IMG/VR virus record: IMGVR_UViG_3300029609_000116
Span: 1-5,887 of that record
Reading direction: 5' to 3' (one strand)
DNA length: 5,887 bases
DNA from: a virus
Positions 1 to 5,887 of the stretch are shown in pieces. The first letter of the stretch is position 1. Each line of letters begins with the position of its first letter. The notes under the pieces were generated by a model, which worked only from the letters and a program-made list of their open reading frames with translations, ran no database searches and was not told the origin of the DNA. Both the position numbers and the translations under genes were made by a program.

Positions 1-594
1 CTTCCCCTCGCTTTCGGCGTATCCTTGGCCTATTCCTTTTGAGGTCCACACCTTGGTGACGAAGTCCGGGTGTTTTTCGTCGATTTTGAATATGTATTTT
101 ATGATGTAATTTACGGTCTTCTCATTCACAAACTCTCCGTAGTCTACAAATCCGTAATTCCATACCTCTTCCACTTCTTCTTTGCTTTTCTCCGTCCACA
201 ATATTCCGTGTAAATGCATTCTTTGCGAGTCGTTTCCGCCTAATTCGCATATCAAAAAATGTTTTATGCCGCACTTGTATTTTTTGTACCACCGTTTCCT
301 GAATAATTCGATGCTTCGACTTGCTACGTTCAAGGCTTCTTCTTGCTCGAATTTTAATAGTGATTCGTCACTGTACGTCATTGTCACGAAGTGTGCGTTT
401 TCGGGATGATTTTTCAATTCGATCATCAGTCTCACTCGCCACTCGTTTGCTCGTTTTTTTCGACACTCGATGCATTTTCCGCATCCGATTGCTACAACCT
501 TTTTTCTCTCGTCGTCGCAATACGGCGTATGTCCGCCGTTTTTCTTGTTCGGCAGATACCTCTTGTTTCTTATTAATCTGGGATATAAACACAT
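1..594 (-). CDS. Replication initiator protein (microvirus VP4 / protein-A-like), N-terminal 165 codons; the ORF continues in frame across the circular junction into 5887..5450
   Basis: Minus-strand ATG at 594-592, then an open frame down to base 100. Because 1-99 = 5789-5887, the same frame runs on through 5887..5450 (checked codon by codon; the ORF track shows only the distal part from an internal GTG). The translation begins MCLYPRLIRNKRYLPNKKNGGHTPYCDDERKKVVAIGCGKCIECRKKRANEW, a Cys cluster typical of microvirus Rep N-termini. FVTMTY at 373-390 resembles rolling-circle motif I. RMHLHGILW at 196-222 is an HxH motif II. NYIIKYIFK carries a YxxKY paired-tyrosine motif III that straddles the repeat boundary (Y at 106-108, K at 97-99, Y at 94-96 = 5882-5884). 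The in-frame TAA at 742-744 is the VP2 stop, so 594 is the first ATG of the frame. Bases 1-99 are a redundant copy of 5789-5887. Confidence 0.88.
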   Translation of the reverse strand, partial: MCLYPRLIRNKRYLPNKKNGGHTPYCDDERKKVVAIGCGKCIECRKKRANEWRVRLMIELKNHPENAHFVTMTYSDESLLKFEQEEALNVASRSIELFRKRWYKKYKCGIKHFLICELGGNDSQRMHLHGILWTEKSKEEVEEVWNYGFVDYGEFVNEKTVNYIIKYIFKIDEKHPDFVTKVWTSKGIGQGYAESEGK

Positions 595-617
595 GTCGAA
601 GACACCATTAATCGGTC

Positions 618-669
618 GGAGCACGGCGGAGGCCGATATAGGCCGGCCGTAAGGCTGATAGGCCGTATG
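618..669. promoter_or_regulatory. GC-rich palindrome / direct-repeat cluster in the VP2-Rep intergenic spacer (candidate origin or Rep control region)
   Basis: cggaggccgatataggccggccgtaaggctgataggccgtatg contains the 8-bp palindrome GGCCGGCC (641-648) and the potential hairpins GGCC-gatata-GGCC and CGGCC-(12 nt)-GGCCG (644-648 / 661-665). The direct repeat ATAGGCCG occurs at 638-645 and 658-665 (20-nt spacing). The region is sharply more GC-rich than its flanks. It lies between the VP2 terminator and the Rep ATG (594). Confidence 0.4.
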
Positions 670-713
670 AAAAACCTTAATAAAAAGGAGGATTGGGCTT
701 GCCCTTTCCTCCT
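670..713 (-). terminator. Intrinsic (rho-independent-type) terminator immediately downstream of VP2
   Basis: On the minus strand, 29 nt after the VP2 TAA, the sequence reads AGGAGGA-aa-GGGC-aa-GCCC-aa-TCCTCCT (686-713 on plus: aggaggattgggcttgccctttcctcct). That gives a 7-bp outer stem plus a 3-4-bp inner G/C stem. It is followed directly by TTTTATTAAGGTTTTT (revcomp of 670-685). Confidence 0.6.
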
Positions 714-741
714 CGTATAAGACTTTTTCGGAAATTTCGTA

Positions 742-1818
742 TTATTTCGTTAGCCCTCTTGCGCCCGCTGCGGCGCCTACGGTAACTCCGATTGCTTTCA
801 GTATCCGTTCTCCCAGATCCATCCAGAACTTCGGAGTCTTCTCTATCCCGTACTCATATTGCGTTGTCAGCTCCCTCCACGCTTGTTGCGCTCGATTTGT
901 TGCCGCATTTTCGATGGCGGCTAATCCGGAGTTTTTTGCGGCTTCGGCCTGTATTAAGTTGCTTACTGCTTCGATGAATAGATACTTTTTCCGTTCCGTA
1001 TTTAATTCGGCCAAGGCCTTTGAATTTTCACTTTGACCTTTTGCCGCCTCCGATTCCGATAGAGTCTTTATGATCTCTGCCGAATCTTTTCTGGTCGGGA
1101 GTCTTGTCGAGTCGATTCGATGATCTCCGTAGAAATCGTCGTAAACCTCGACGCCCCACCGATCGTTGTCCTCAATGGCCATATCCTCGAACATTTTCCG
1201 TACATTGTCGATGTACTGACTTTTCCCTCGTTGGAATATTTCCTTCACTCTGCCTTCTCTCATCTCTCGCTCCGTTTGAGCTTCCTCGGCCGTCTTTGAC
1301 GCTGACGCCTTGTTTTGTTCGGCCTGACTGTCCAGTACCTCTCCTTGTTTTTTCAGGTTCGCTAAATTCAATCCCAGTTCGATCTGACTGGCTCGCGTAG
1401 CCCATTGCTTGGCCGGCGAATCCGCCTCTCCCGCATTAGCCCCGTGAGCTTGCGCCATAGGACCCTGAGTCATGAATCCGCTGCCTCCTCCGGAGCCGCT
1501 TCCGCCATACATAAGCCCGACTGAAAGTCCGGCTTCTTCCATTTGTTTCCGCATGGCTGCATAGGATTGGTCTTTGTAAGATCTTTCGTATGCCTCCATT
1601 TGCCTTTTAAACGCGTTTTCCGCCGCTTTTTCGCCCCAACGGTAGTTGGACTCGTTCGCAGCCTCGTTTAGCTTAATTTGGTTCTCTAATTGTCTTTTGG
1701 CTCGTTTCCTGTTTCCGATTCCGAATAATCCGAGGATGCCGCCTCCGGCGCTCGCAATTTGACCCGCGGATTGAGCGCCCGCACTTATACCGCCCAGTGT
1801 TGATAAGAGTGCTCCCAT
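742..1818 (-). CDS. Minor capsid / DNA pilot protein (microvirus VP2, phiX174 H-like), 358 aa
   Basis: ORF of 358 aa. The N-terminus MGALLSTLGGISAGAQSAGQIASAGGGILGLFGIGNRKRAKR is Gly/Ala-rich and hydrophobic. It is followed by long Q/A/E/K-rich predicted helical (coiled-coil-like) segments and a second Gly run (GGSGSGGGSG). This is the usual architecture of microvirus pilot proteins. It sits downstream of VP1 as expected. The A-rich leader ...aaaaaaaagtgaaaaATG has no strong SD. Confidence 0.8.
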   Translation of the reverse strand: MGALLSTLGGISAGAQSAGQIASAGGGILGLFGIGNRKRAKRQLENQIKLNEAANESNYRWGEKAAENAFKRQMEAYERSYKDQSYAAMRKQMEEAGLSVGLMYGGSGSGGGSGFMTQGPMAQAHGANAGEADSPAKQWATRASQIELGLNLANLKKQGEVLDSQAEQNKASASKTAEEAQTEREMREGRVKEIFQRGKSQYIDNVRKMFEDMAIEDNDRWGVEVYDDFYGDHRIDSTRLPTRKDSAEIIKTLSESEAAKGQSENSKALAELNTERKKYLFIEAVSNLIQAEAAKNSGLAAIENAATNRAQQAWRELTTQYEYGIEKTPKFWMDLGERILKAIGVTVGAAAGARGLTK

Positions 1819-1825
1819 TTTTCAC

Positions 1826-1842
1826 TTTTTTTTAAAAAAAAA
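1826..1842. promoter_or_regulatory. Self-complementary T8A9 tract in the AT-rich leader upstream of VP2
   Basis: ttttttttaaaaaaaaa lies 8 nt upstream of the VP2 ATG in minus sense. It is embedded in a 60-nt AT-rich stretch (1819-1880) that includes atatatgtataat. This is a likely VP2 promoter / leader region. The sequence would bend strongly and melts easily. Confidence 0.3.
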
Positions 1843-1884
1843 TCAAGATACATTCTTGTTATATATGTATAATCGTCTACCGCA

Positions 1885-1926
1885 GTGAACTTCTGTAAGT
1901 TACCCCCCGCTAGGCGGGGGGTTCAC
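1885..1926. other. Nested stem-loop with a perfect all-G/C 8-bp stem, in the ORF108-VP2 intergenic spacer
   Basis: ccccccgc (1903-1910) / tag / gcgggggg (1914-1921) is a perfect inverted repeat. It is flanked by gtgaa (1885-1889) ... ttcac (1922-1926), which is also an inverted repeat, with an asymmetric internal loop ttctgtaagtta. On the minus (mRNA-sense) strand no U-tract follows it, so it is not a canonical intrinsic terminator. Confidence 0.6.
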
Positions 1927-1953
1927 TCATGACGATTTACGAAGGCCATTGCC

Positions 1954-2280
1954 CTATTTGTCCGGATCGACCTTGTTCTCGATTTCGGACAATTCTTGAG
2001 CCTTTTCGACAGGCTTCAAGACATCCATCCTCTGAGCCTCTTTGGCCATTTCGCTTTCTTGGACTTTCGACATCGCCTCTCTTGCTATTTCGAATCTGTC
2101 CGTTCGAATGTCGAATGCCGGAAGCACTCCGTCTGTTTTCTTTGTATAGACGATGGGAATGTCTCCTGCGAGCGGTTCGTTGGTTTCCGTAACTCTCCTT
2201 AACTTAACCTCGAGGCCCTCTGCTTCGTAGGTTGCGTCGACCCTTAACGTAGGTCTGTACGTATAAATCGGCTTTCTCAT
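1954..2280 (-). CDS. Hypothetical protein, 108 aa, between VP1 and VP2; N-terminal half with mixed hydrophobic/charged character, C-terminal acidic Lys/Glu-rich tail
   Basis: Its ATG at 2280-2278 lies only 4 nt after the VP1 TAA (2287-2285): TAA-AAAA-ATG, which is tight coupling. It is on the same strand as every other gene. The protein MRKPIYTYRPTLRVDATYEAEGLEVKLRRVTETNEPLAGDIPIVYTKKTDGVLPAFDIRTDRFEIAREAMSKVQESEMAKEAQRMDVLKPVEKAQELSEIENKVDPDK has varied, protein-like composition. I see no recognisable motif. Confidence 0.55.
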   Translation of the reverse strand: MRKPIYTYRPTLRVDATYEAEGLEVKLRRVTETNEPLAGDIPIVYTKKTDGVLPAFDIRTDRFEIAREAMSKVQESEMAKEAQRMDVLKPVEKAQELSEIENKVDPDK

Positions 2281-2284
2281 TTTT

Positions 2285-4435
2285 TTACAAATTAGGAATT
2301 TCCCGGGCGCTCTTTACGCGGCGACCGATCACGTCGAATCCGATTTGTATCCAAAAATTTTTCGCGTCCAAATCGGAGTTTGCAAACGCTTTATTGAATA
2401 TTTGCGGATCGATATAGGTTGTGGCATCCTTCAGTTTCGGATCGTTAACCACTTCGTAGACCCTATTGAAGGCCATATACTCTAACGGTTCCCCTGCAGC
2501 GAAATCTCCGTATGTTTCGTTGATCGTAGTAGTGTATTCCGTCCACGCCGGTTGTTTCCCTACGCTAAAGTCCGTTGTCTTGTAATTCGCGCTGATTCCC
2601 CATGCTCGACCGTTCATTTCCTGAGATAAGAGCTCTTGAAATCCGATCTGATCGAGATTAGGTTTGTGGAAATCGTTCATCGTTTGGATTCTTGTCCACC
2701 ATTTGTTGCCTTGCGAGTAGTCTACTCTTGGTACGATTGATCCGAGAATCATGATCAGCGACGGTTCTTCGCAGCGGATTTTAATATTCTTCCCTCCTCT
2801 TTTCGATGTCTCGCGGCCTCTTCCTGCGAGTGATCCGAGTGGTTCCTGTCCGGTGTTTCCGCTTTCGAAGGCTGCCGTACTGACAACCTCGTCGAATACG
2901 ATTTCCGATGCATAACCTCCGACATATATCGGGCTCTCTGCAGCGCGACTCACTCGGACTCCGAACACCGCCTCCTGCCAATCCCTGTATGAACCGCCCG
3001 ATACGGCGATCCGATTAAGCATGTCGTAGACTTTTTTCTGCAAGATAAGCGCATCCATGGTGAGCACTCCGCTTGTCACGTCGACCGAGGTTATTTCGTT
3101 GATGCCGTTCGTTCCGTCTATCCACTCGGTATTCAGCCAATTGTTGAAACGGTCGGATAGGTACGTCCGGATTCCCAATCCGCACTGAGATGTGGTTCTC
3201 CCGTAGATCTGGACTCCGCTTTGAGTCTTGAGTGTATCGTACAGCGGAGCCAAGAACGGGTATTTTGTCGCACTCGCAGTGGAACTCGGTAGTATGAACT
3301 CTTCTTGTGACGGTGTCGCTAGAATTTCTTCTTTGAGATTGTCTATCGTGTTCAGATCGAATTTTTGCAGCTGAATGTCGTTTTTCGTGTTGAAACCGGT
3401 GATTTTATCGATTTCTTTGTTTTCATCGATAATTACTGGAGTTTTACCTGCCGTGCTTGGTATGGCATATTGATTCGCCGGAATACTGAATGTGAATCTT
3501 ACGGTCTTTCTATTGACTTGGCTGATCTCGTTTGCTTTTGAGAGTTCTCTGCTTAGAGGAGTTGCCGTACTGTTGATGGCCGGCAGTTTGAGATAGACGT
3601 TCTTGCCGATCTTTTCGGCATCTGCCGCCCCTGAGAATTGAATTTGGACGGATAGGCTTGTGCCCGTAATGGGTATTTTCTCGGTAACATTGAGTACTGT
3701 GCCCTGATTTGAGATCGGGTTTTGCGCCGACGCGTTGTAGATGATCACTCCGTTGCTCAATTTCGGACTGGGCCCGATAACGAATCCGATTTCTTCTTGT
3801 TTGTTGGCGTAATAGTTTTTATAGATGTCCCAGTATGCCAATTCGAAGAGAGCCTGCCTTTTGATATGCAGTTCGGCATTGGTCGCGTTGATAGGTAGTC
3901 CTCTTTTCCCGAGATATGCGGGAAGTGAAGACGGATTGTAGTTATTTGCGTTTTTGATGAGATACTCGTCGATTTTTTCATTCCCGACATAACTTTCCCT
4001 AGTTACCGGTTCCCATAGTTTCGGCAGCTTGATATTGGCCATTTTCAGTCCTACGCCCAGCGCATTGTTGTGAAGCGCCGACATGTATAGTCGTATGGGC
4101 ACGCAGAATACGTCCACTTGGAATTTTGCCGATCCGAATATCGGTCCGTTGGTAGGTAATGTTCGAATGATCGATTCGATCTCGTTGATGTAGAATGTGT
4201 CGCCTGTCAGTCCTATTTCGCAGTAGTAAGGTACGACTGTTGCGAAAGATTGATCGGTTCTTACGATTTTCGACAGGTTATTTGAACTTCGGCCGAAATT
4301 TTCGAGTTCCACGGCCATTTTTTTTCCGGCGCCCAGTCGTTCGCCTCCGAGGGTCTTTTTCATTTCTTTTCGCTTTTTTGTTTTTTGATGATATGTGTTG
4401 TGATTAACGATACTGTAACCAATAGGTCGTTCCAT
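2285..4435 (-). CDS. Major capsid protein (microvirus VP1 / phiX174 F-like); 716 aa from the first ATG, probable true start at ATG 4363 (692 aa)
   Basis: The long minus ORF contains the conserved microvirus MCP N-terminal block ...FGRSSNNLSKIVRTDQSFATVVPYYCEIGLTGDTFYINEIESIIRTLPTNGPIFGSAKFQVDVFCVPIRLYMSALHNNALGVGL. This corresponds to the RSxFDLS...LPGDTF...D.F.VP.R..W pattern of F/VP1 jelly-roll capsid proteins. The length is in the range of large-MCP lineages such as Alpavirinae. There are three in-frame ATGs, at 4435, 4363 and 4318. ATG 4363 overlaps the TGA of the upstream ORF as ATGA and follows an A-rich leader (caaaaaacaaaaaagcgaaaagaa), so I favour it. Confidence 0.92.
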   Translation of the reverse strand: MERPIGYSIVNHNTYHQKTKKRKEMKKTLGGERLGAGKKMAVELENFGRSSNNLSKIVRTDQSFATVVPYYCEIGLTGDTFYINEIESIIRTLPTNGPIFGSAKFQVDVFCVPIRLYMSALHNNALGVGLKMANIKLPKLWEPVTRESYVGNEKIDEYLIKNANNYNPSSLPAYLGKRGLPINATNAELHIKRQALFELAYWDIYKNYYANKQEEIGFVIGPSPKLSNGVIIYNASAQNPISNQGTVLNVTEKIPITGTSLSVQIQFSGAADAEKIGKNVYLKLPAINSTATPLSRELSKANEISQVNRKTVRFTFSIPANQYAIPSTAGKTPVIIDENKEIDKITGFNTKNDIQLQKFDLNTIDNLKEEILATPSQEEFILPSSTASATKYPFLAPLYDTLKTQSGVQIYGRTTSQCGLGIRTYLSDRFNNWLNTEWIDGTNGINEITSVDVTSGVLTMDALILQKKVYDMLNRIAVSGGSYRDWQEAVFGVRVSRAAESPIYVGGYASEIVFDEVVSTAAFESGNTGQEPLGSLAGRGRETSKRGGKNIKIRCEEPSLIMILGSIVPRVDYSQGNKWWTRIQTMNDFHKPNLDQIGFQELLSQEMNGRAWGISANYKTTDFSVGKQPAWTEYTTTINETYGDFAAGEPLEYMAFNRVYEVVNDPKLKDATTYIDPQIFNKAFANSDLDAKNFWIQIGFDVIGRRVKSAREIPNL

Positions 4436-4668
4436 GTCATATTTTCGGGTTTACAGTATTCTCTGGCTTCCTCTTTTGTCTGAAAGGTTCGGTTCGATAT
4501 GCGATTTTTCCCTACGGTCACAACGTATCCTTGTTCTTTGTTGCCGAGGATTGAAAACGGCGACTCTTCTATTCGCTCGCATTCGATGACATCCGTTTGG
4601 TCTTTCGGCGATAGTGAGATGGTTTCTCTTTTCATGTCTTCATTTTTTAATGGTTCCGACTTGTTCAT
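4360..4668 (-). CDS. Hypothetical protein, 102 aa (91 aa if started at the internal ATG 4635)
   Basis: Minus ORF MNKSEPLKNEDMKRETISLSPKDQTDVIECERIEESPFSILGNKEQGYVVTVGKNRISNRTFQTKEEAREYCKPENMTWNDLLVTVSLITTHIIKKQKSEKK. Its TGA (4362-4360) overlaps the VP1 ATG 4363 as ATGA. The ATG at 4668 overlaps the preceding ORF by 29 nt. The alternative ATG at 4635 lies 4 nt after that ORF's stop. It belongs to the same-strand tiled gene array. Confidence 0.5.
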   Translation of the reverse strand: MNKSEPLKNEDMKRETISLSPKDQTDVIECERIEESPFSILGNKEQGYVVTVGKNRISNRTFQTKEEAREYCKPENMTWNDLLVTVSLITTHIIKKQKSEKK

Positions 4669-4855
4669 AGGTGATTTTCGTTACAACGGTGTCTCCGTTT
4701 TTAAACGTCGACGCCGACTGACTCACGAATTGTTTGGCGTTGCAACTCGTAAGTAACACGATTGCTGTTGCACAGATGACTGCGACGATCGCAACGATCG
4801 TTTTGTTCTTCCCCCAGCCGGTTGACTGAAGGAAGTTTTCGTTTTGCTTACTCAT
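4640..4855 (-). CDS. Small predicted lipoprotein / membrane protein (about 71 aa): signal peptide with lipobox LLTSC, then a 33-aa mature peptide
   Basis: From ATG 4855-4853: MSKQNENFLQSTGWGKNKTIVAIVAVICATAIVLLTSC NAKQFVSQSASTFKNGDTVVTKITYEQVGTIKK. The N-region carries Lys residues, the h-region is 17 hydrophobic residues, and then L-T-S-C fits the [LVI][ASTVI][GAS]C lipobox. The ATG overlaps the TGA (4854-4852) of the upstream 70-aa ORF as ATGA. The ORF track extends this frame to ATG 4993 (117 aa), but the extra 46 residues (MSRFEQCRLQNRVGFHREESRPSGPNTRIHRSCDQKIRCAIKSISN) look like low-complexity off-frame translation. Confidence 0.55.
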   Translation of the reverse strand: MSKQNENFLQSTGWGKNKTIVAIVAVICATAIVLLTSCNAKQFVSQSASTFKNGDTVVTKITYEQVGTIKK

Positions 4856-5064
4856 GTTTGAAATAGATTTAATTGCACACCGTATTTTCTGATCACACGA
4901 ACGGTGTATACGTGTGTTTGGCCCTGATGGTCGACTTTCTTCTCGGTGGAAACCGACACGGTTTTGTAGACGGCATTGTTCAAATCTTGACAAGTCTGAA
5001 CTACTCCGTCTTCGTCAATTACCGTTTGCCTGTGGTAGATCGTTCTGCTCTGTGAACATTCCAT
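4852..5064 (-). CDS. Hypothetical protein, 70 aa
   Basis: Minus ORF MECSQSRTIYHRQTVIDEDGVVQTCQDLNNAVYKTVSVSTEKKVDHQGQTHVYTVRVIRKYGVQLNLFQT with a true ATG at 5064-5062. Its stop is ATGA-coupled to the lipoprotein ORF. The composition is protein-like and alternates hydrophobic and polar residues. It overlaps the preceding 60-aa ORF by 50 nt in another frame. Confidence 0.42.
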   Translation of the reverse strand: MECSQSRTIYHRQTVIDEDGVVQTCQDLNNAVYKTVSVSTEKKVDHQGQTHVYTVRVIRKYGVQLNLFQT

Positions 5065-5197
5065 GTCGCCTCATTTTTTCCAGTGTGGTTTGCTCGGCAA
5101 ATTCTATGTTCCATAGTTGTTCGAGCGTCTTCTGCTTTTCCAGTTGAATTTTGGTAAGGCGCTCCTTGAGCGCCTCACCAAGTGCTTGCTTATTCAT
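5015..5197 (-). CDS. Hypothetical protein, 60 aa, predicted helical / coiled-coil-like
   Basis: Minus ORF MNKQALGEALKERLTKIQLEKQKTLEQLWNIEFAEQTTLEKMRRHGMFTEQNDLPQANGN from ATG 5197-5195. Heptad-like spacing of L/I residues in a K/E/Q-rich background. Its start overlaps the TAA (5192-5190) of the upstream 82-aa ORF by 8 nt (ATGAATAAG), consistent with coupled translation. Confidence 0.42.
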   Translation of the reverse strand: MNKQALGEALKERLTKIQLEKQKTLEQLWNIEFAEQTTLEKMRRHGMFTEQNDLPQANGN

Positions 5198-5438
5198 AAA
5201 ATACCTGCGATTTCCATATTTCGGCGTCTATTTCGTATTTGCGGTGTACCAGTCGGATGCTCGCATAGAAGTAGCCGTCTTTTAATTTTCCCTTTGACAG
5301 GCATTGGTGCTCGGCCGGAGCAATATCTGCGTATGCAACGGTTTCTTTTGCCCGATCCATAGCGCTTTTCAGTACGGGAGTCGTCTTGACGAGATACTTG
5401 CCTTCTCTTGTCACTTTCAGAACTTGGTAGATTTTCAT
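5190..5438 (-). CDS. Hypothetical protein, 82 aa, first gene downstream of the replication gene
   Basis: Minus ORF MKIYQVLKVTREGKYLVKTTPVLKSAMDRAKETVAYADIAPAEHQCLSKGKLKDGYFYASIRLVHRKYEIDAEIWKSQVFYE. The ATG at 5438-5436 lies 11 nt after the Rep TAA (5452-5450). Same strand and protein-like composition. Function unknown. By position it could be a VP5/VP3-class small protein, but there is no sequence support for that. Confidence 0.48.
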   Translation of the reverse strand: MKIYQVLKVTREGKYLVKTTPVLKSAMDRAKETVAYADIAPAEHQCLSKGKLKDGYFYASIRLVHRKYEIDAEIWKSQVFYE

Positions 5439-5449
5439 GGCATTGTTTT

Positions 5450-5887
5450 TTAAGATTGTGACTCAAATATATTTTTATTATTTAATTTTTCCAAATTTTT
5501 CTTATAGGATTTTTTTATCCAAACATCGGAACTATAACCTAAAGATTCCGTTCTCTCTTGATGATATTTTAAACACCCGAAATACAATCGCATGCCTTTT
5601 TCATCCGATATATCGATTTTCTCCCCGCACACATATCTTTTTTTCTGATCGAGTTTTTGTAACCACAGCTCCTCCCGTTGGTCCTCGTCGAATATCTTGT
5701 TTCGGAGGTAAATCGGTAAGGCTACTTTCAGTCCGGATGGCATTTTGTAGTAATCTTTTGTTGAAATTCCTCTGAATTTATTAAAACACTTCCCCTCGCT
5801 TTCGGCGTATCCTTGGCCTATTCCTTTTGAGGTCCACACCTTGGTGACGAAGTCCGGGTGTTTTTCGTCGATTTTGAATATGTATTT
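5450..5887 (-). CDS. Replication initiator protein (VP4 / protein-A-like), C-terminal 145 aa; same gene as feature 1..594, joined across the circular junction
   Basis: The minus frame is open from the window end through to the TAA at 5452-5450. Translation reads ...KYIFKIDEKHPDFVTKVWTSKGIGQGYAESEGKCFNKFRGISTKDYYKMPSGLKVALPIYLRNKIFDEDQREELWLQKLDQKKRYVCGEKIDISDEKGMRLYFGCLKYHQERTESLGYSSDVWIKKSYKKNLEKLNNKNIFESQS. The frame is exactly contiguous with codon 100-102 of the window start. The whole Rep is about 310 aa. Confidence 0.88.
   Translation of the reverse strand, partial: KYIFKIDEKHPDFVTKVWTSKGIGQGYAESEGKCFNKFRGISTKDYYKMPSGLKVALPIYLRNKIFDEDQREELWLQKLDQKKRYVCGEKIDISDEKGMRLYFGCLKYHQERTESLGYSSDVWIKKSYKKNLEKLNNKNIFESQS
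5789..5887. repeat. 99-nt exact terminal redundancy (copy of bases 1-99): circular genome closure / assembly overlap
   Basis: The base-by-base comparison is identical: cttcccctcgctttcggcgtatccttggcctattccttttgaggtccacaccttggtgacgaagtccgggtgtttttcgtcgattttgaatatgtattt occurs at 1-99 and at 5789-5887. The unit genome is therefore 5,788 nt. The repeat falls inside the Rep coding sequence, so it is not a biological LTR or att site. Confidence 0.9.

Follow-up and report, generated by a model that had tools for sequence, protein, structure and literature searches.

A widespread family of small predicted lipoproteins in gut microviruses, with a possible role in host lysis

Our analysis of a 5,887-nucleotide (nt) stretch of viral DNA (IMG/VR record IMGVR_UViG_3300029609_000116, positions 1 to 5,887; hereafter the window) revealed that this genome of a microvirus, a tiny single-stranded-DNA phage from the human gut, carries, on its minus strand, a 71-amino acid (aa) gene belonging to a large family of small predicted lipoproteins. 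The gene is genuine and is under strong purifying selection, especially in the part that encodes the mature peptide. Its product is, as judged from the sequence, a lipoprotein precursor. Very probably, it is exported and becomes a lipid-anchored peptide whose hairpin, in the periplasm, binds a conserved component of the host envelope. We tentatively propose that this peptide is a stand-alone envelope effector, with a lysis protein as the leading candidate.

The 71-aa gene and its predicted lipoprotein product

The open reading frame (ORF) runs on the minus strand from an ATG at 4855-4853 to a TGA stop at 4642-4640 (71 codons plus the stop, 4640..4855) and encodes MSKQNENFLQSTGWGKNKTIVAIVAVICATAIVLLTSCNAKQFVSQSASTFKNGDTVVTKITYEQVGTIKK. 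Among about 5.8 billion proteins searched, 111 close homologs were found; these are 52-100% identical to this protein, nearly all exactly 71 aa long and all located on contigs of ≤6 kb. In an alignment of these homologs, Cys38 is invariant and the 33-residue tail that follows it is almost invariant. Comparison of 10 relatives gave, for the mature tail, a synonymous difference of 0.52 and a non-synonymous difference of 0.025, corresponding to a non-synonymous to synonymous ratio (pN/pS) of 0.049. The ratio is about 0.3 in the signal part of the same relatives, and the overall value for the gene is 0.195. Third codon positions vary in 25 of the 33 tail codons, first positions in 3 and second positions in 2. 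This third-position bias, together with the low pN/pS, indicates that conservation acts at the level of the protein and not of the DNA or of another reading frame.

An initial annotation, made from the DNA letters alone, had given exactly this translation but had left room for a 117-aa, N-terminally extended ORF as the real product. The longer form (TTG at 4993) is ruled out: its frame is not conserved, being closed in relatives by stops that lie 4-11 codons ahead of the ATG. The product is the 71-aa form. The region upstream of the ATG encodes, in these relatives, a conserved 68-70-aa protein in another frame. In the window, the region required by the 117-aa form is occupied by a 70-aa gene (4852-5064, minus strand), the stop of which overlaps the start of the lipoprotein gene in an ATGA sequence (4852..4855, minus strand). 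The protein encoded by this upstream gene is 59-68% identical within the clade, and the gene is not common to the other lipoprotein-bearing lineages. The spacing between the upstream gene and the lipoprotein gene stays within -4 to +1 nt in relatives.

The putative signal peptide spans residues 1-37 (4745..4855, minus strand), with a predicted helix over residues 16-38. Its n-region, residues 1-18 (4855-4802, minus strand), contains K3, K16 and K18 as well as the conserved S11 and W14, and leads into a 19-residue uncharged stretch, T19-S37. Among close relatives the sequence of the hydrophobic stretch varies while its hydrophobicity is retained. The stretch ends in the lipobox L35-T36-S37-C38 (4742..4753, minus strand), the cysteine of which is predicted to be lipidated as the first mature residue. 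The mature peptide, C38-K71 (CNAKQFVSQSASTFKNGDTVVTKITYEQVGTIKK; 4643..4744, minus strand), consists of Cys38 and 33 further residues and has a charged C-terminus, ...VGTIKK. As expected of lipoproteins, the family as a whole has basic residues ahead of the hydrophobic stretch, and the h-region runs directly into a lipobox of the form [LVI][ASTVI][GAS]C. Thus, what the initial annotation had read as a type-II signal peptide, ATGA-coupled to the preceding ORF and located inside a microvirus, holds on each count: the charged n-region, uncharged stretch, L-T-S-C and 33-residue tail are present with a cysteine that is invariant in the family, the overlap is real and its tight spacing is kept in relatives, and the circular genome encodes a Phage_F capsid, a replication protein and a pilot protein.

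Classical pattern rules are narrowly missed, which tells against a lipoprotein. PROSITE rule PS51257 places the cysteine within residues 15-35, so that Cys38 lies three residues beyond it, and DOLOP-type patterns call for an n-region shorter than the 18 residues seen here; the same geometry recurs across the window-type clade. The long n-region, the conserved interfacial Trp14 and a cysteine past the usual range would all suit an uncleaved type-II membrane anchor, with the N-terminus inside, the hairpin outside and Cys38 in another role, for example in a disulfide-linked dimer. Such an anchor could serve any membrane-associated function, including one at a replication or assembly site. We consider it quite improbable, however, given that the cysteine is invariant, that S, G or A always stands at -1 and mostly L or F at -3 across the scored members, and that in very diverse relatives the cysteine exactly ends a freely varying hydrophobic stretch. 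Moreover, the second cysteine, C28, is not conserved.

Family members, predicted shape and location

A profile of the close relatives, searched first against 1.84 billion cluster representatives, retrieved more remote relatives that share this layout and are likewise small (58-108 aa). A second profile search (E ≤ 0.001, proteins of 55-110 aa) brought the family to 2217 clusters at 90% identity. The look for homologous mini-lipoproteins in other Microviridae that the initial annotation had suggested therefore uncovers a large family. Members with visible contigs lie on microvirus-sized contigs or in microvirus prophages only. Cys38 is invariant in alignments A1 and A2 and in more than 140 relatives. 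In the diverse alignment, A2, the cysteine, V44 and D55 are invariant and Q46, G54, T56, I61, Y63, Q65 and G67 nearly so, giving a family motif of C-x3-H-x-V-x-Q-S ... [KR]-G-D-T-x-V-T ... I-x-Y-E-Q-x-G-x-x-K-K, the last part at the C-terminus. Between 30 and 43 residues follow the cysteine (33 in the window protein). No proline occurs in the mature part of any of 142 members and no second cysteine is conserved among them.

Some variants combine the signal peptide and a mid-peptide D-T or D-S step with other tails, including a GVHxDTVxVxY type and a 56-aa type that occurs in a clade with 46% capsid identity. The presence of this step in all of them suggests a single superfamily of putative hairpin lipopeptides with diversifying tails. 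The alternative mature domains behind similar signal peptides include ...SGVHIDTVRVDYI(I/V)RS... (at L050, L052, L056-L059, L061-L065, L072 and L096-L100 in our numbering), ...EQGC-THKH-LKA-GIKIDTIEVSTSTKIK in the 56-aa form (L021, L077-L095), and STTRQVTHAYYMSQDSTVMQF in a further type (L073). In one lineage (L184 8001-8588; L051, L053-L055, L063), the lipoprotein ORF continues for ~195 codons, and the Ser/Leu/Pro/Arg-rich extension after the hairpin-like part resembles out-of-frame sequence; it might have arisen by gene fusion, contain an overprinted gene or simply be open by chance.

Pfam, PHROGs, NCBIfam and PADLOC contained no significant or consistent match to the window protein or to 27 diverse members, the weak NCBIfam matches to YqhH and Lpp covering the signal peptide only, and a profile search of Protein Data Bank (PDB) sequences gave no match at E ≤ 10. 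Copies in GenBank are labeled "hypothetical" or left unannotated. Among the papers searched, we found none that describes this lipoprotein family or that ties Microviridae to a lipobox or a lipoprotein gene, although a survey of microvirus diversity noted small proteins of ~65 aa and unknown function that link different microvirus families (PMC9239249). The family lies outside all named families of small phage lipoproteins, and microviruses are a phage group for which none has been described.

Two AlphaFold2 runs, one with close and one with diverse relatives, predicted the same helix through the hydrophobic stretch followed by a single β-hairpin, with moderate confidence (mean predicted local distance difference test scores of 74.7 and 66.0). 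The predicted hairpin pairs strands 43-53 and 56-66 around the turn N53-G54-D55 (4658..4729, minus strand), so that the G-D-T of invariant D55 and nearly invariant G54 and T56 forms the hairpin tip. Foldseek comparison of the model with the PDB yielded no match below E = 1, as is expected for a fold that consists of a helix plus a hairpin. With respect to location, surface lipoproteins of Bacteroidetes carry an acidic export signal after Cys+1, such as K-(D/E)2, Q-A-(D/E)2 or SDDDD (PMC5080379). At +2 to +6, acidic residues are absent from all 142 family members, and the window protein reads C-N-A-K-Q-F. This lack of the surface-export signal points to a lipopeptide that faces the periplasm.

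Lysis weighed against other envelope functions

Four considerations underlie the proposal of a lysis role: elimination, independence from a phage partner, behavior resembling that of the microvirus peptidase gene, and the precedent of the colicin lysis lipoproteins. With regard to elimination, the only 17-residue segment with a mean Kyte-Doolittle hydropathy of ≥1.6 in the three coding-strand frames is the hydrophobic stretch of the lipoprotein. No holin, E-like overprinted membrane protein or i-spanin was found in any of these three frames, and domain scans of the genome detected no muralytic or other recognizable lysis domain. The lineages that carry the lipoprotein have no other small ORF in common; therefore, a conserved accessory phage partner is not needed.

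Colicin lysis proteins and entericidin B provide the precedent. Encoded on very small replicons, they are lipoproteins with mature parts of ~28-33 residues that act alone and cause envelope failure and lysis. The window protein shares with them the plan of a tiny pre-lipoprotein with a lipobox and a mature part of ~30 residues. Unlike these proteins, which come from enterobacterial plasmids or chromosomes, it is phage-encoded and has a predicted hairpin with a motif of its own, and Pfam scans of the window protein and 27 family members (E ≤ 1) found no match to Lysis_col or entericidin. Protein E of phiX174 and the amurins offer a second comparison: here too a small membrane-targeted protein is made by a tiny phage that lacks a muralytic enzyme, with translation coupled to an upstream gene. 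However, E is anchored by its N-terminus and targets MraY while inside the inner membrane, whereas the window gene is not overprinted, its product is exported and probably lipidated, and the two are not homologous.

The mode of inheritance resembles that of the microvirus peptidase. Within the window clade the mature tail is more conserved than the capsid (91-100% versus 73-91% identity). In sister clades at ~46% capsid identity, it has diverged or been replaced by another type, and in the lineages of L017 and L006, at 24-26% capsid identity, the tail is again 61-68% identical. This incongruence between tail and capsid indicates exchange between microvirus lineages and suggests, from the sequences, that the gene follows the host and not the virion. 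The same pattern of lineage exchange has been reported for the microvirus peptidase gene (PMC9239249). The M15 peptidase (Peptidase_M15_3) of Alpavirinae and Gokushovirinae was proposed as a microvirus endolysin, phiX174 being the only microvirus with a known lysis mechanism (PMC3394797), and it is also present in phiHBP1 (PMC13064476). Like the lipoprotein gene, the peptidase gene is accessory, host-directed and variable in position. The two differ in that the peptidase is an enzyme of ~120-170 aa acquired from bacteria or tailed phages, whereas the lipoprotein, among members with inspectable context, is seen in microvirus genomes and prophages only.

The two genes did not co-occur in any genome examined. 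No M15 peptidase was found in about 62 lipoprotein-positive loci ascertained by the lipoprotein or in 27 ascertained by the capsid, and none of 13 M15-positive microviruses, including phiHBP1 and a relative with 39% capsid identity, carries the lipoprotein. By comparison, all six examined relatives from GenBank or genome records that lack M15 carry one small lipoprotein gene. A general rule of "lipoprotein or M15" was nevertheless dropped, given that 42 of 70 capsid-ascertained IMG/VR genomes have neither; most of these are at ~40% capsid identity and lower in G+C. In the group L104-L153 (~40% capsid identity), most genomes lack both M15 and a small membrane protein on the coding strand. In several M15 carriers (L023 3097-3243; L126 901-999; L158 1138-1230), an ORF of 30-48 aa with one hydrophobic segment lies directly after the peptidase gene. 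This ORF has no lipobox cysteine and could encode a minimal holin-like partner.

In the mechanism that we propose, the precursor would, in a Bacteroidota host, be exported by Sec, lipidated on Cys38 by Lgt and cut after Ser37 by signal peptidase II, yielding a periplasmic lipopeptide of 34 residues. Having no acidic export signal, the lipopeptide would remain facing the periplasm. Its synthesis may be kept low and delayed in time by the tight link to the upstream gene. Late in infection, the lipopeptide would act alone on a conserved host envelope component, leading to envelope failure and virion release. Its role would then be equivalent to that of protein E in phiX174 and to the presumed role of M15 in other microviruses. 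A more specific version, which we offer with greater reserve, is that the family represents single-gene lysis proteins of a new class, in which a β-hairpin of 33 residues, anchored by lipid, would work as a "protein antibiotic" directed from the periplasmic side at a conserved step of envelope biogenesis or autolysin control in Bacteroidota and exchanged between distant lineages as an alternative to M15.

Several points weigh against a lysis function. The genomes that carry neither gene indicate that microviruses can lyse their hosts by non-membrane means, and the argument "no enzyme, so this gene" is thus not compelling. The complementarity of lipoprotein and M15 is statistically weak, since the M15 carriers come from few lineages that belong to other clades. 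A 33-residue hairpin is without catalytic capacity, and we know of no characterized single-gene lysis protein that is a lipoprotein. In addition, related carriers are temperate prophages, in which the lipoprotein gene lies at the left edge and reads inward, a position typical of conversion or exclusion genes. The weight of this last point is tempered by the fact that, with a single direction of transcription, some gene must be first.

The prophage position bears directly on a possible role in receptor masking or superinfection exclusion, such as T5 Llp and the Cor proteins of lambdoid and T1-like phages have. The lipopeptide would attach, from the periplasm, to the outer-membrane protein used for entry, for example a SusC-like TonB-dependent transporter, thereby blocking further infection, shielding progeny from inactivation on debris and serving as a conversion gene in lysogens. 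Llp and Cor are likewise small, periplasm-facing phage lipoproteins that act without a phage partner, and Llp is such a gene carried by a strictly lytic phage. Some carriers here are temperate, the L017-type carriers being integrated Bacteroidota prophages with the gene at the left end, and the type of gene departs from the core phylogeny as expected of a gene directed at the host surface. Moreover, susC/susD loci have been implicated in the susceptibility of B. fragilis to the microvirus phiHBP1 (PMC13064476). We regard an exclusion function as the main rival to lysis and a serious one, if somewhat less likely. An accessory exclusion gene would not usually be near-universal in the gut clades or be under such very strong purifying selection, the capsid protein, which would touch the receptor, varies more than the mature peptide, and the absence of the gene from every examined M15-carrying microvirus is left unexplained. 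There is also no similarity to any named Pfam or PHROGs family and no homology to Llp or Cor was found, the mature part being about half the size of either.

The initial annotation had also listed a spanin-like role, which does not stand. Rz1-type o-spanins and the unimolecular spanin gp11 of T1 do resemble the window protein in having an N-terminal lipoprotein signal of outer-membrane type on a small phage protein. In contrast to the setting of Rz1, the window genome has no i-spanin gene, holin or endolysin, and the mature part is not proline-rich and has no conserved periplasmic cysteine. T1 gp11 differs in turn, as the window protein has a single hydrophobic segment and a charged C-terminus. 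Spanin models were thus rejected for want of an inner-membrane partner, a C-terminal membrane segment, proline or a conserved second cysteine. A looser version would make the lipopeptide a spanin- or disruptin-analogous accessory that weakens the outer membrane or envelope but is insufficient alone, the wall step being performed by another, unrecognized phage or host protein. The outer-membrane type of signal and the predicted amphipathic hairpin would accord with such a role, and the existence of microviruses with neither the lipoprotein nor M15 means that another wall-directed mechanism may be ancestral. We judge this reading improbable, not only because the features that define spanins are missing but because the M15 carriers, which would be most in need of an outer-membrane step, lack the lipoprotein.

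Genome context, hosts and significance

The window is a complete circular microvirus genome, the first and last 99 bases of which are identical (1-99 and 5789-5887), giving a true length of 5788 nt. All of its genes lie on the minus strand. First in transcription order is the replication protein gene, which runs across the window ends down to 5450; since it spans the circle junction, naive end-to-end concatenation duplicates 33 of its codons. An 82-aa gene (5438-5190, minus strand) opens the cluster of small genes that contains the lipoprotein gene and is followed by a 60-aa gene (5197-5015, minus strand) and the 70-aa gene described above. Downstream of the lipoprotein gene and directly upstream of the capsid gene lies a 91-aa gene (4360..4635, minus strand; supported by gene calls on identical contigs), which is kept in capsid-related clades only. 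The major capsid protein (Pfam Phage_F) occupies 4363-2285 (minus strand). Its longest ORF, of 716 aa (ATG 4435), overlaps the 91-aa gene at 4360-4435, but gene callers and relatives place the start at ATG 4363 (692 aa, MKKTLGG...), which leaves a 4-nt overlap with the stop of the 91-aa gene. A 108-aa gene (2280-1954) and the pilot protein gene (1818-742), both on the minus strand, complete the arrangement. Contigs of ~5.9 kb from human gut metagenomes carry identical copies of the 71-aa protein. The closest GenBank record is Dulem virus 222 from lemur feces (85.8% nucleotide identity), in which the gene is annotated as "hypothetical protein".

Gene starts in the window are preceded by A-rich leaders and, with one exception, have no Shine-Dalgarno motif, which is one of the indications of a Bacteroidota host. 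A scan for TAnnTTTG, the Bacteroidetes -7 consensus, gave a single match on the coding strand (TATATTTG, 5471-5464, minus strand), ~26 nt upstream of the 82-aa gene; the number of matches in the window is below chance expectation. Sigma-70 and terminator scans of the window gave nothing informative.

The hosts are, on genomic evidence, Bacteroidota, and some carriers are temperate. Capsid relatives include a prophage in a Dysgonomonas contig and a member of a Bacteroides bin, and phiHBP1, the sole isolated microvirus of Bacteroidota, infects B. fragilis (PMC13064476). A scan of metagenome contigs located L017-type carriers and relatives, which form another lineage, as insertions in long bacterial contigs, the longest of 3.0 Mb; the site is always the same, downstream of recA and relA/spoT. 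No Shine-Dalgarno motifs precede the genes flanking these prophages, one of which has TAtaTTTG ahead of it. Prophages of at least three microvirus lineages share this chromosomal locus of gut Bacteroidota, after recA, relA/spoT and a HIT-family gene and before genes for a CPBP protease and a zinc-binding protein (L165, at about 7.7-13.5 kb, L163, L169, L172, L174, L182, L184, L185, L188, L208, L216 and L230). RecA is nearly identical across the prophage contigs, and their hosts are probably of one genus. The window-type copies observed, by comparison, are all on free, genome-sized contigs. A complete microvirus with 47% capsid identity (L021, NZ_JACWEU010000076.1, 5673 nt) is filed as an Acinetobacter lwoffii scaffold; near-identical genomes from gut viromes (L077-L095) make contamination of that assembly more likely than a link to this host.

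Few phages of the human gut are more abundant than microviruses, and yet lysis is understood for phiX174 only and no function has been assigned to the majority of their small genes. Against this background, the lipoprotein genes constitute a defined, very widespread and strongly constrained family of simple architecture with an invariant motif. The family further offers a clear example of gene exchange among microvirus lineages, which were thought to recombine rarely. If its members are exclusion factors, they would identify the entry route of these phages. Their function would bear on the long-standing gap of how microviruses other than phiX174 exit their hosts, the window phage being one that has no cell-wall enzyme. 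Should the family members prove to be lysis proteins, they would embody a new lysis principle, a peptide-sized inhibitor of a Bacteroidota envelope function and with it a new antibacterial target, and as a new lysis class they would account for lysis by a large share of gut microviruses.

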